In this document: positions 17,263 through 20,550 of the stretch, piece by piece
Numbering within the stretch: position 1 is the first letter of the stretch
Layout of the letters: every line of letters starts with the position of its first letter
DNA from: Naegleria gruberi
Taxonomy: Eukaryota
DNA length: 64,000 nt
NCBI GenBank assembly: GCA_000004985.1
Contig: GG738850.1
Reading direction: 5' to 3' (one strand)
Translations under genes and position numbers: made by a program
Notes under the pieces: generated by a model
Told to the model about the DNA's origin: nothing
What the model saw: the letters and a program-made list of their open reading frames with translations, nothing else
The model's database searches: none

Positions 17263-20200
17263 ATGAGAAGTAGAGAGTTGAGTAGAGAAGAATGTTTTTC
17301 CATCCTCCAATTTGAACCTTCCTTGTTTTCTCTAATGACCGGAAGGCTGATCTGTAAAAATTTCTATGAGGCTTGTGTATTGTTGCAGCTCAGAATTAAA
17401 TTTAAAACTCGGAAGGAAATTTTAGCCTTTGCCAAGTTGTTGGATCGAAGAATATTGAAAAAAGTGGTAGAAATCAGTGCCAAGAATTGTGATCTTGAAG
17501 ATGATGATATGCAAATCATCGGATCAATGTTTGATAATTTACAAATTTTAAATTTAGAGAATAATTTATTGACTTTGAATGGATTGCACTGTTTGGAGGG
17601 CAGTGGAATTGTTAATTCTCTTAGGGTAATCAATATTAGAGGAAATCAAGGAAGTTTAGATATTGATGTATTTAAAAATTTGAAAATTCTTGAATGTGAA
17701 AAAGTAGATAAACCAAAAAAGATTCATCAGTTGGAAGCTTTAACTACCAGTAGCATTTCAAATCAAATTGTTGAAAGTTTACCCCATTTAAAACATATTA
17801 CAATAACTAGAGGTAAAATTGGTGCTTGGGACTCTCTATCTAAACTTTCTAATTTGGAAACTCTTTCATTGCAATGCGCTATTGGGAATAATGTTTCTAT
17901 TTTCAAAAATTTGAAAAAGTTGTTAATTCAACATGTCTCTCTCACCATTGAGACTGTTGAAACTATTGCTAAGAATCTAGATCACGTAGAATCTTTAAAA
18001 TTATTGTATATTGCAATACAAGGAGATGATATTATTACAACATTATGTAATTTGAAAGTAACTGAGAGAGTTAAAACACTCCATTTGGTTGCTAATAATA
18101 TTTCTGATGTTGGTGTTGATTTTCTAATTTCAAATTCAAACCTTGAAAAATTAACATCACTAGATCTCTCTTTTAATAAGATAACTGAAAATGGTATCAG
18201 ATCTATAACTTGTACTTCAAAACTTACAAATTTAAGAAAGCTGTCACTTAAAAGGTCGAAGGGAAGTTTATACTTGGGTCACTTTATGAACAGTCATTTA
18301 AAAAATTTGACTTCATTGAATATTAAATCAGAAGATCATGCTTTCGAAGGTATAGATGACTTTTTACTTTCCCCATTTGCAAAGAAACTTCAAAAGTGTA
18401 GAATTTTCAGCAAAGATATTCCAAAATGGAGATTCTCAAGAAAAATCAACATTCTAAAAGAGAATGAGGCCAGTGTTGACACTCTCCTACAATTTATGCT
18501 AGACAGGCCATCAATAGAAAATTCAATTGGTATTAATCATGAACTTCCTGATACTATTAGAAATGTGAATGATCATTTTAGAGTTCTACTGAATTATATT
18601 GATAATTTATTACCTAGCCATTTAGGATTCCATCCTTCTGGGCGTATTATGATAGTGATTGAAGCCGAAATATGTTATGGCACTACTATTATTGAAAAAT
18701 GTTCTGAAACATTCTCATGTGATTATTCCATGTCGATCAATTGCAATCATTACTTCAACTTTGCCAAACGTTTGGTAGAATTACCATTAGAGAGTGTCTT
18801 GAAAATCAAAATTTTCGTCTTGAAACTCTCATCAATGGGAAAGAAACAAGTAGCACATTCTATAACGCCAATATTCAATAGGAATGGAAAACATATTAAT
18901 GGCATCATTCAAAATGCTATGCATAGCAGTTTTACACCAAAGGAATTTAAGATGATGACAACCTTTGATAAGTATGATGATTGTGTTGGTCCTTTTGAGG
19001 GAGATTTAGCTGAATTACATGAACTCTCAAACAGTAAAGAACTACCAAGCAATTTTGAAGAATTATTAACAAAGAAAGTGCTGACTGATGAAGAAAAAAA
19101 CATGATTTGGAGTTTAAGAAAAATTATCCCAAAAACTCATCTAGGTTTGAGAGTTTTGATGGAAAGCTTTCCCTTTATGAATCAGCATGCCCTCGAATAT
19201 ATGAGAAACCAAATCAGAGAACTTGTCAATACCTTCTCAAATCCATGCCAATATTTGGAATTATTAGGAGAACCATTTATTGATACTGAAATCAGAGATT
19301 TAGCATATAAGGCCATTAATCAAATGACAGATAGCCAATTATTCAATTCTATGAACATTATTATAGAATTATTGGCTTGTGAAATGGAATTAGACAATCC
19401 ACTCTCACAAATTCTCTTGAATCGAGGATTAAATAATGTGGATATAGGAAGACATTTATTCTGGTGCATTCAGGGCAACCTGCACAATTCCAGCATTAGA
19501 GGCAAACTAGCTTGGTTAGCAGTACAATTTTTGAACAATATTACCCATGAAAGACTGTTGGAATTTTACAATCAGTGTCTCTATATTTATCAAATAGAAG
19601 AAATCGATTTGAATATCAAAGAAACACCAAGAATTAACTTGTCGACACATACAGAATTATTGGTCCAAAGAGTATCCGAGTTGGCATTCCCTACACCATT
19701 CATTCTCCCTTACCCACCTTACAGCTCAGTTCAACGTATCATTGCTGAAAAGACAAGCCTTACTGACTCAAGAAATAGAGCAGTGATAATCACATACGAA
19801 TCGAATGGGAAAACTGGTCAACTTCTAATGATCAGCCGTGAAAATAAGGTTGATAGTTACATGTCCTCAACACTAAGAATTCTTTCAGATATGTGGAATA
19901 GCACCTACCCAAATGAAGAGAGAACTTTTGTGCAAGGTTCGGTTATCCCTATTGATAATGATATTTGCATTTATGAAAAGGCCTCCCAATCCCTTTATGA
20001 AATTCAGGGCAGTAATTTGTCAAGAATTTCTGATCCAAGCTCCTGGATAGAAATTGGAAACAATCAATTTCCAAATTTTGAAAGAAATCTTTTACGATCA
20101 TATGCGTTTCACGCTATTTTTGCAATGACTTTAAAGATTAGAGATTTGCACAATGACAATATTGGAATCAATGAAGAAGGATTTCTCAGCTTATATGATA

Positions 20201-20550
20201 AGAATTCTATCCTAGCACCTCCCAAGTTTGGTTTCCTTTCAAGAAGAAAAGGATTCTTTGGTGGTATGGGATTACTCAAACTTTTGAAATCCGATGAATT
20301 CAGAGACCATGCTGTAAAAAATTTATTCCTGCTTTCTCAAAATTCTCGATTACTTTATGCACTAATGTGCGAAATGGTTCGGTTAGATTTGAGAAATGAC
20401 ATTACGTATCAAATAATAGTCAACCAATTCAAGGAAATGTTAGATGATAACGATACTTTTAAAAAGTGTCAGCATGCAGTTGATAAGTTTATTAAGGAAG
20501 GAACAAATCTACTTAACACCGATTTTATTCACATGCTAAGACATGATTGA
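17263..20550 (+). CDS. leucine-rich-repeat protein with a C-terminal PI3K/PI4K-like catalytic domain bearing non-canonical motifs
   Basis: The N-terminal half has many LxxLxLxxN LRRs. The C-terminal region has a PI3/4-kinase-like N-lobe (ITYESNGKTGQLLMISRENKVDSYMSSTLRILSDMW) and a catalytic loop IRDLHNDNIGI (cf. GDRHxDN). The activation-loop position reads SLYDKN instead of DFG. Confidence 0.55.
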   Translation: MRSRELSREECFSILQFEPSLFSLMTGRLICKNFYEACVLLQLRIKFKTRKEILAFAKLLDRRILKKVVEISAKNCDLEDDDMQIIGSMFDNLQILNLENNLLTLNGLHCLEGSGIVNSLRVINIRGNQGSLDIDVFKNLKILECEKVDKPKKIHQLEALTTSSISNQIVESLPHLKHITITRGKIGAWDSLSKLSNLETLSLQCAIGNNVSIFKNLKKLLIQHVSLTIETVETIAKNLDHVESLKLLYIAIQGDDIITTLCNLKVTERVKTLHLVANNISDVGVDFLISNSNLEKLTSLDLSFNKITENGIRSITCTSKLTNLRKLSLKRSKGSLYLGHFMNSHLKNLTSLNIKSEDHAFEGIDDFLLSPFAKKLQKCRIFSKDIPKWRFSRKINILKENEASVDTLLQFMLDRPSIENSIGINHELPDTIRNVNDHFRVLLNYIDNLLPSHLGFHPSGRIMIVIEAEICYGTTIIEKCSETFSCDYSMSINCNHYFNFAKRLVELPLESVLKIKIFVLKLSSMGKKQVAHSITPIFNRNGKHINGIIQNAMHSSFTPKEFKMMTTFDKYDDCVGPFEGDLAELHELSNSKELPSNFEELLTKKVLTDEEKNMIWSLRKIIPKTHLGLRVLMESFPFMNQHALEYMRNQIRELVNTFSNPCQYLELLGEPFIDTEIRDLAYKAINQMTDSQLFNSMNIIIELLACEMELDNPLSQILLNRGLNNVDIGRHLFWCIQGNLHNSSIRGKLAWLAVQFLNNITHERLLEFYNQCLYIYQIEEIDLNIKETPRINLSTHTELLVQRVSELAFPTPFILPYPPYSSVQRIIAEKTSLTDSRNRAVIITYESNGKTGQLLMISRENKVDSYMSSTLRILSDMWNSTYPNEERTFVQGSVIPIDNDICIYEKASQSLYEIQGSNLSRISDPSSWIEIGNNQFPNFERNLLRSYAFHAIFAMTLKIRDLHNDNIGINEEGFLSLYDKNSILAPPKFGFLSRRKGFFGGMGLLKLLKSDEFRDHAVKNLFLLSQNSRLLYALMCEMVRLDLRNDITYQIIVNQFKEMLDDNDTFKKCQHAVDKFIKEGTNLLNTDFIHMLRHD

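Follow-up and report, generated by a model that had tools for sequence, protein, structure and literature searches.

Among protein kinases, pseudokinases have been studied in detail; among the PIKKs, TRRAP is, to our knowledge, the single known example. For the lipid-kinase branch of the PI3K superfamily, no derivative with degraded catalytic features is known to us, and none was found in the literature that we searched. Leucine-rich repeats (LRRs) mediate the binding of GTPases or other partners in yeast adenylate cyclase Cyr1 and in Roco/LRRK proteins. The same role has been described for the LRRs of the SHOC2-RAS-PP1C complex (PMC12905138). TRRAP/Tra1, for its part, has a kinase fold of the PI3K superfamily from which catalytic residues have been lost, and its role is that of a scaffold for protein interactions (PMC7619004, PMC8625110). 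In Tetrahymena, the pseudo-PIPKs are lineage-specific phosphoinositide kinase paralogues with degraded motifs that are predicted to be inactive (PMC3823935).

We compared with these systems the product of a gene of Naegleria gruberi, a heterolobosean amoeboflagellate. The window analyzed, a stretch of 64,000 nucleotides from contig GG738850.1 (assembly GCA_000004985.1), had been interpreted earlier from its letters and open reading frames; that sequence-only reading wrongly named related fungi as the comparison set. The gene occupies positions 17263..20550 of the plus strand as a single, uninterrupted, single-exon frame of 1095 amino acids plus stop, and its product is identical to N. gruberi XP_002681327.1 / EFC48583.1 / UniProt D2V372. 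The public name of D2V372 is the automatically annotated "phosphoinositide-3-kinase gamma"; its accession numbers are mentioned neither in the supplements of the Naegleria pangenome paper nor in the literature searched. The joining of an LRR region to a PI3K-type module, as recognized in the sequence-only reading, was borne out by matches to Pfam LRR_4 and PIK within the one frame, in which the domain order is LRR, C2, PIK helical, and kinase-like (Table 1). The same reading had spoken of a PI3K/PI4K-like domain, of which the PI3K likeness stood; the module is not a generic one, its arrangement (C2, PIK helical, and kinase) being that of class I-type PI3Ks.

Class I-type PI3Ks include mammalian p110alpha/beta/gamma/delta and protist proteins with the layout RBD-C2-PIK-kinase, such as N. 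gruberi XP_002678075.1 and those of Percolomonas and Dictyostelium. They share with D2V372 the C2 domain, the PIK helical domain, and the bilobal kinase fold in the same order, as well as homologous sequence (E 1e-15 to 1e-25), the D-x-H-N-D-N loop, the DFG Asp, and a conserved C-terminal His. In contrast to these enzymes, D2V372 has an LRR solenoid instead of a Ras-binding domain and ABD, and it is devoid of the ATP Lys, GDD, the DRH Arg, the DFG Phe and Gly, the adenine-pocket residues, and PFVxT. TRRAP is a ~430-kDa PIKK with HEAT, FAT, and FATC regions that is present eukaryote-wide, whereas D2V372 comprises 1095 residues, belongs to the class I-type lipid-kinase lineage, and is known from one species. 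Neither FAT nor FATC gave a Pfam match in D2V372, its closest structures are class I PI3Ks and not PIKKs, and the two proteins have no specific relationship. The Tetrahymena pseudo-PIPKs resemble D2V372 as lineage-specific protist phosphoinositide-kinase paralogues with degraded catalytic motifs, but they differ in having a PIPK fold, no LRR fusion, and strong Pfam scores. SHOC2, Cyr1, and Roco/LRRK resemble D2V372 in combining an LRR arc, by fusion or by binding, with a signalling enzyme module; unlike them, D2V372 contains no domain of the Roc/COR, PP2C, cyclase, or protein-kinase type (for Roc and COR, no Pfam match was obtained).

Table 1 Features of the D2V372 gene, with positions in the window and the evidence for each
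Feature	Positions	Strand	Description and evidence
N-terminal ~65 residues	17263..17457	+	Predicted helical, low confidence; without Pfam match
LRR region, residues ~66-390	17458..18432	+	~12 irregular units of 19-28 residues; Pfam LRR_4, GALA-LRR 4xa9
Linker, residues 391-444	18433..18594	+	No PI3K_rbd match
C2 domain, residues ~445-570	18595..18972	+	AF2 beta-sandwich; weak Pfam PI3K_C2
PIK (helical/accessory) domain, residues ~600-775	19060..19587	+	Pfam PF00613
Degenerate PI3K kinase-like domain, residues ~800-1095	19660..20547	+	Custom profile, AF2
Met856 at ATP-anchoring Lys position	19828..19830	+	Alignment; p110gamma K833 equivalent
Catalytic loop DLHNDN, residues 961-966	20143..20160	+	Alignment
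DFG-equivalent D979-K980-N981	20197..20205	+	Alignment

The Pfam PIK helical model (PF00613) matched residues 606-763 with an E value of 2.8e-16 (59.9 bits, with a cut-off of 31), and a phmmer search of PDB aligned residues 606-1035 with p110gamma (E 4.5e-15). The match to Pfam PI3K_C2 (PF00792) was weak (E 0.002-0.012) and below the cut-off. The Pfam kinase model PI3_PI4_kinase (PF00454), which recognizes the relatives at ~E 1e-54, found no match on residues 801-1095 even at E<=10. We also applied a custom profile prepared from the kinase domains of 101 relatives, and the kinase region of D2V372 scored 38.4 bits with it (E 7.6e-11), the best of 2000 shuffles reaching 7.9 bits. An exhaustive phmmer search yielded 503 relatives, with a canonical N. 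gruberi PI3K paralogue as the best match (24% identity). Identity of D2V372 to its closest relatives was 19-27%, compared with 44-49% for the relatives among themselves in the helical and kinase domains. The ten best relatives checked were canonical class I-type PI3Ks with motifs intact in the alignment, and the nine scanned with Pfam contained PIK and kinase domains together with C2 and/or RBD.

Structure models were obtained with AF2. With an MSA of canonical PI3Ks as guide, the model of the C-terminal half showed pLDDT values of 80-95 over residues 430-1095 overall, ~90 for the helical region (residues 598-805), and ~75-90 in the kinase-like domain. Strands in residues 438-568 formed a C2 beta-sandwich (pLDDT >90) located inside the region that Foldseek aligned with p110gamma. 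The sequence-only reading had proposed HHpred or Foldseek on residues ~650-1095, and the predicted fold was indeed PI3K-like: p110gamma was matched with an E value of 3.4e-31 over ~720-750 aligned columns, and the top 50 matches were all class I PI3Ks (E ~1e-31 to 1e-28). The C-terminal 650 residues of D2V372 are thus homologous to class I-type PI3Ks as judged by sequence comparison, with the same fold predicted for them.

For the LRR half, residues 1-439 scanned alone matched Pfam LRR_4 in five stretches (E 7e-8, 32.9 bits, with a cut-off of 27), and the GALA-type LRR protein 4xa9 of PDB matched in four (E 2.7e-6). The repeats are tandem units of the LxxLxLxxN/CxL type; the best-formed ones, as judged from the repeat layout, lie in residues 270-350, and the sequence likeness of the LRRs is generic (GALA/CC-type, E about 1e-6). 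A single-sequence model of residues 1-445 had a pLDDT of ~42 and supported an LRR fold weakly; the best Foldseek matches of this low-confidence model were all LRR proteins (E ~3e-4). Confidence for residues 1-430 was low in both AF2 runs, and it is sequence profiles that support a putative LRR fold for residues ~66-390. A stretch resembling "LICKNFYEA" and an F-box-like neighboring reading frame had suggested an F-box at the NH2-terminus, but no Pfam match was obtained at E<=10.

The Pfam scan gave no match to PI3K_rbd (PF00794) in D2V372, whereas this domain is present in eight of the nine relatives scanned. The linker at residues 391-444 is too short to hold a Ras-binding domain, and the LRR solenoid occupies the place of the Ras-binding region. 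The closest paralogue, P0004, likewise has no Pfam RBD match. The statement in the sequence-only reading that no canonical family is known to couple LRRs to a PI3K-like fold agrees with our results, in that LRRs were found in none of the 150 nearest relatives and no LRR-PI3K family was found in the literature searched. The LRR-PI3K architecture is so far that of N. gruberi alone.

Standard kinase-dead mutants are p110gamma K833R, p110alpha K802R, and p110alpha R916P. The DRH Arg forms a hydrogen bond with the DFG Asp (PMC4207468), Mg2+ is bound by the DFG motif, and the substrate hydroxyl is contacted by the catalytic-loop Asp (PMC7619004). In D2V372, alignment of the catalytic residues confirmed a loop of DLHNDN instead of DRHxxN, with the DRH Arg replaced by Leu962; the residues for chemistry and metal binding (D961, H963, N964, D965, N966, and D979), together with Ser836 of the ATP loop, are all retained. 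DRH is found in 111 of the 112 relatives with a readable loop. The five of six positions matched by the catalytic loop, within a domain of ~20% identity, hint at a residual constraint on the active site. The triplet previously read as YDK at the DFG position was displaced by one residue; the true triplet is DKN, in which D979 represents the retained Asp and K980 and N981 replace Phe and Gly, respectively. An aromatic residue follows the DFG Asp in every readable relative, whereas the third position is variable in active-looking relatives (DFA, DFT, or DFS).

The alignment also revealed losses that the sequence-only reading had overlooked, as it had the C2 domain, which follows the LRRs and precedes the helical domain. 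The segment K-x-G-D-D-L-R-Q-D reads M856-I-S-R-E-N-K-V-D864, so that the ATP Lys is replaced by Met, GDD is lost, and the last Asp alone is retained. Further substitutions in the kinase region are M to G968, F to S976, and I to Y978, at positions assigned to the adenine pocket, and the activation loop is shortened and contains no PFVxT. In the kinase N-lobe, D2V372 retains only 4 of the 15 columns that are invariant among relatives, compared with 13 of 20 for the PIK domain; retention in the helical and C-lobe regions favors the columns of the structural core.

We consider it fairly likely that D2V372 is a lineage-specific, fast-diverged paralogue of class I-type PI3K catalytic subunits that carries an LRR solenoid for the Ras-binding region and has become a pseudokinase, and that it is probably a non-catalytic scaffold. 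The choice between an atypical kinase and a pseudokinase scaffold, as originally put forward, was framed correctly, and the additional losses (ATP Lys to Met, GDD, and three adenine-pocket positions) shift it towards the pseudokinase. If the protein were instead an active, though atypical, lipid (or protein) kinase, catalysis would depend on the retained core of D961/H963/N966/D979, with other basic residues (such as R837/R839 in the ATP loop, K862, or K980) holding the ATP phosphates in place of the canonical Lys and with the LRRs serving for targeting or regulation. Given that the ATP Lys is relocated in some kinases, with WNK as a precedent, such activity is possible on sequence grounds, and the conserved Asp, His, and Asn of the catalytic loop, the DFG Asp, the ATP-loop Ser, the kinase fold predicted with good confidence, and the tolerance of relatives for variation at the third DFG position are in its favor. 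We nevertheless regard an active enzyme as unlikely: the ATP Lys, GDD, the DRH Arg, the DFG Phe, and three adenine-pocket positions have been lost jointly, each of these residues is invariant or nearly so among relatives, the activation loop has been cut short, and no match to the Pfam kinase model was obtained.

If D2V372 is a pseudokinase, phosphorylation of phosphoinositides would have been lost, and the protein would have the role of a scaffold or adaptor, its LRR arc binding a protein partner. A GTPase of the Ras/Rap type is a plausible candidate for this partner, given that in SHOC2, yeast Cyr1, and Roco proteins the LRRs cooperate with small GTPases; GTPase binding by the LRRs of D2V372 is pure inference from this analogy. 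The C2-helical-pseudokinase body might offer surfaces inherited from PI3K to the membrane or to partners, and canonical N. gruberi PI3Ks might be competed with or modulated by the protein. In a bolder proposal, which we put forward as a decidedly long shot, the LRR solenoid would substitute functionally for the RBD on a PI3K chassis, providing the input by which a GTPase or other partner is sensed. In that event, D2V372 would be either the first PI3K pseudokinase derived from a lipid kinase, with a non-catalytic role in the regulation of PIP3 signalling (it might, for example, withhold activators or membrane sites from canonical Naegleria PI3Ks), or a Lys-less PI3K with a rewired ATP site that still transfers phosphate.

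If D2V372 is expressed and functional, the C2-helical-kinase chassis of PI3K would be reusable as a scaffold, and an LRR module would be able to stand in for Ras-binding input. The impact is limited, as D2V372 is one gene in one free-living amoeba, and the shuffling of domains within single lineages is a frequent event in Naegleria. From its sequence, the name "phosphoinositide-3-kinase gamma" appears misleading, and inventories of Naegleria signalling should probably leave D2V372 out of their count of active class I PI3Ks.

No orthologue of D2V372 was found by exhaustive phmmer, by word-index searches, or by a metagenome scan for close relatives, the protein collection searched possibly being without N. 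fowleri, N. lovaniensis, and Willaertia. The word-index searches, performed with the full protein, the C-terminal half, and an 11-sequence profile, were nearly uninformative, probably as a result of low-complexity or LRR words. The 90%-identity clusters of the neighboring genes contained no other species, even for Sec61.

The missing orthologue, together with the extreme divergence and the loss of catalytic motifs, would also fit a non-functional or decaying lineage-specific gene, namely a duplicated PI3K with an acquired LRR exon that is drifting and has no cellular role. On the upstream side, a tRNA-Cys gene lies only 56 nt from the ATG, and a 5S rRNA gene follows 118 nt past the stop; the scant space that is left for a Pol II promoter points in the same direction. 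Such decay is, however, quite improbable. Stops and frameshifts would be expected from neutral drift to ~20% identity, yet the frame of 1095 codons is intact in AT-rich DNA, a stop-free run with a chance of ~1e-36 at 34% G+C; an intact 3.3 kb frame with only 19-27% identity to relatives argues for long-term selection for a protein. The preferential retention of the helical and C-lobe core, the confident folding of the PI3K-like module by AF2, and a codon composition like that of the neighboring genes also count against decay.

An assembly or gene-model chimera of an LRR gene and a truncated PI3K gene, to which the restriction of the architecture to a single genome and the lack of a confident LRR-to-C2 interface in the AF2 model would correspond, is very improbable in view of the continuous frame with no need for splicing and no in-frame stop at the junction, the smooth G+C and GC3 over the junction, the absence of repeats or paralogous copies within the window, the 707-kb length of the scaffold, and the identity of the deposited model. 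A foreign source or horizontal transfer of either half was rejected on the basis of the uniform G+C and GC3, both of which match those of the neighboring genes.

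LRR-PI3K is encoded by a single ORF of 1095 codons without interruption, a stop-free run with a chance probability of ~1e-36 at the window G+C content of 34%. Its translation matched XP_002681327.1 (EFC48583.1, UniProt D2V372) with 100% identity over the full length; this protein was deposited as "phosphoinositide-3-kinase gamma [Naegleria gruberi]", and its gene is carried by a 707-kb scaffold. The LRR and PI3K-like fusion noted in the sequence-only reading is real, and that reading was essentially correct save for motif register and organism: it assumed a fungal source, whereas LRR-PI3K and the adjoining ORFs are exact matches to proteins of N. 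gruberi, a heterolobosean amoeboflagellate. LRR-PI3K is an LRR-fused class I-type PI3K paralogue, detected in a single species and probably catalytically dead.

Domains of LRR-PI3K (residues) and neighboring features (window positions)
Feature	Location	Strand	Evidence or remark
LRR-PI3K ORF	window 17263..20550	+	
LRRs (~12 irregular repeats, 19-28 residues each)	residues ~66-390		Pfam LRR_4, PDB GALA-type LRR 4xa9, repeat layout
Linker	residues 391-444		too short for Ras-binding domain (RBD); no RBD match
C2	residues ~445-570		weak Pfam PI3K_C2, E 0.002-0.012
PIK helical	residues ~600-775		PF00613, E 2.8e-16
Kinase-like	residues ~800-1095		no Pfam PI3_PI4_kinase match
609-aa ORF	window 14521-16350	+	F-box-like motif at start (LLDLPQEIIYKIFEYV)
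tRNA-Cys(GCA), 17-nt intron	window 17114-17206	+	ARAGORN -i; Rfam RF00005, 54.7 bits
5S rRNA, full-length	window 20669-20787	+	Rfam RF00001, 106.5 bits, E 1.8e-23
167-aa ORF	window 21069-21572	+	signal-peptide-like hydrophobic N-terminus, then Lys/Arg/Asn-rich tail
tRNA-Leu(TAA)	window 21719-21801	-	just beyond 5S rRNA
DOCK-family GEF, 2300 aa	window 25093-31995	+	DOCK-C2 and DHR-2 lobes A, B, C
TRAPPC8/Trs85 homologue	window 37815-41552	-	large conserved trafficking or signaling gene

Four lines of evidence identify the COOH-terminal half as PI3K. A phmmer search of PDB sequences yielded class I p110 isoforms as all top 60 matches, with p110gamma (E 4.5e-15) aligned over residues 606-1035. 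Exhaustive phmmer against 1.84 billion representative proteins found 503 relatives of residues 440-1095; the nine best relatives scanned were canonical class I-type PI3Ks, with PIK and kinase domains in 9/9, RBD and C2 each in 8/9, and a Pfam kinase-domain score of about E 1e-54. The kinase-like region of LRR-PI3K did not match Pfam PI3_PI4_kinase even at E<=10. To judge this region independently of the helical domain, residues 786-1095 were searched, together with 2000 shuffles, against a custom profile of 101 relatives' kinase domains: the region aligned end to end at 38.4 bits (E 7.6e-11), compared with 7.9 bits for the best shuffle. AF2 with a 56-sequence alignment gave pLDDT 80-95 over residues 430-1095, a fold steered by the canonical PI3Ks in that alignment, and the Foldseek top 50 comprised class I PI3K structures only, the best being 8so9_A (p110gamma; E 3.4e-31, about 720-750 aligned columns across the C2, helical, and kinase domains). 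The proposed PI3K-like fold is thus supported, and no orthology to a known non-kinase protein was found.

When residues 1-439 were scanned alone, Pfam LRR_4 matched five stretches (E 7e-8; 32.9 bits versus a cut-off of 27), and the PDB entry 4xa9 was matched at E 2.7e-6. Structural backing for the LRRs is weak: the NH2-terminus was modeled at pLDDT 30-45 in both AF2 runs, for which alignment depth was lacking there, but the single-sequence model contained periodic strands at residues 178-356, and its top PDB matches were all LRR proteins (E about 3e-4). No RBD, ABD, F-box, Roc/COR, FAT, or FATC domain was detected in LRR-PI3K.

The catalytic site was compared with ten canonical relatives, 55 sequences, p110gamma, and the custom kinase profile. 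The catalytic loop retains D961, H963, N964, D965, and N966; the DFG Asp (D979), ATP-loop Ser836, Asp864, and the conserved COOH-terminal His1090 are also kept. The altered motifs described previously are real, although "YDK" was off by one residue and the triplet is DKN, with its Asp intact. The ATP-anchoring Lys is replaced by Met856, which aligns to p110gamma K833 with the same spacing to D864, and the GDD motif that follows by S-R-E. The DRH Arg is Leu962, the DFG Phe and Gly are Lys980 and Asn981, and the activation loop is shortened, with loss of its PFVxT part. Relative to its homologues, LRR-PI3K also shows M to G968, seven residues past the DRH Asp, and F to S976 and I to Y978, three and one residues ahead of the DFG Asp. 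Judged by offset, they are the equivalents of p110alpha 922, 930, and 932, whose residues agree with the relatives' consensus (M, F, I). These p110alpha positions are listed among the adenine- and affinity-pocket residues, and the DRH Arg pairs with the DFG Asp (PMC4207468). Given the joint loss of the ATP Lys, GDD, DRH Arg, DFG aromatic, and adenine-pocket residues, canonical ATP binding and phosphotransfer appear unlikely. Standard kinase-dead mutants carry K-to-R at the ATP-anchoring Lys or, in p110alpha, R916P. The losses in LRR-PI3K are unusual: DRH is present in 111/112 relatives that have a readable catalytic loop, Phe or Tyr follows the DFG Asp in every relative with a readable DFG, and conservation of the Lys column in the 56-sequence alignment is 90% or higher.

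We therefore favor, with some reserve, the reading of LRR-PI3K as a pseudo-PI3K scaffold, in which a protein-binding input would be supplied by the LRR arc, where the RBD normally stands, and membrane- or partner-binding surfaces by the C2, helical, and pseudokinase body. An atypical, Lys-less active kinase is unlikely, its main argument being the retained D-x-H-N-D-N and DFG Asp. The remaining two alternatives are less likely still. Divergence is uneven and extreme: LRR-PI3K keeps 13/20 of the relatives' invariant columns in the helical domain and 17/31 in the C-lobe but only 4/15 in the N-lobe, and its identity to relatives in the helical and kinase domains is 19-27%, compared with 44-49% among them. 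That the long ORF is intact despite such divergence favors selective maintenance of the protein and makes a drifting, non-functional gene improbable. An assembly chimera is very improbable: neither G+C nor GC3 shifts at the LRR/C2 junction, and both agree with the values of neighboring genes, which speaks against a chimeric or foreign origin.

Apart from LRR-PI3K itself, the exhaustive search gave no protein better than E 1e-30. The best match was the canonical N. gruberi PI3K XP_002678075.1 (E 2.4e-25, 24% identity), followed by Percolomonas, Pharyngomonas, Rhizamoeba, Dictyostelium, and environmental sequences. Of the 150 nearest relatives, none resembled LRR-PI3K in its LRR half. Neither a metagenome scan for close relatives nor word-index searches at 90% clustering yielded a match. 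No orthologue was thus detected, absence not being proven, as the N. fowleri, N. lovaniensis, and Willaertia proteomes are possibly outside the searched libraries. XP_002678075.1, the closest paralogue, has DFT in place of DFG and no Pfam RBD match, being otherwise canonical; given the latter, remodeling of PI3K NH2-termini may be more general in Naegleria.

The N. gruberi genome is known for lineage-specific domain shuffling. LRR-PI3K descends from and works like class I-type PI3K catalytic subunits, but lacks several defining features of active ones: it does not match the curated profile of the kinase domain, it has neither the ATP Lys with GDD nor an RBD, and its DRH and DFG motifs are incomplete. 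LRR modules are coupled to GTPase signaling in Cyr1 and Roco proteins. SHOC2 provides another such example (PMC12905138), and these proteins suggest, by analogy, possible binding partners for the LRRs. The known PI3K-superfamily pseudokinase TRRAP/Tra1 (PMC7619004, PMC8625110) is a PIKK with no specific kinship to LRR-PI3K, and a conceptual parallel with a different fold is provided by the pseudo-PIPKs of ciliates (PMC3823935). PI3K phylogenomic surveys covering Naegleria (PMC4617754, PMC3823935, PMC9928731) mention neither LRR fusions nor LRR-PI3K, and its accession numbers are absent from the searchable literature. LRR-PI3K is an orphan that stands out by its architecture and as a candidate lipid-PI3K pseudokinase.

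The gene is bracketed by Pol III genes, tRNA-Cys upstream and 5S rRNA downstream. The start codon lies 56 nt downstream of the tRNA, which default ARAGORN misses and the -i option detects. A Pol II promoter or 5' UTR would have very little space there; 118 nt separate the stop codon from the 5S rRNA gene. The 609-aa ORF, with no Pfam match at E<=0.001, may encode a divergent F-box protein. The tail of the 167-aa ORF has extreme Lys/Arg/Asn content with repeated KKxxRK-type stretches. The DOCK-family GEF and TRAPPC8/Trs85 homologue look like large, conserved, ordinary trafficking or signaling genes.
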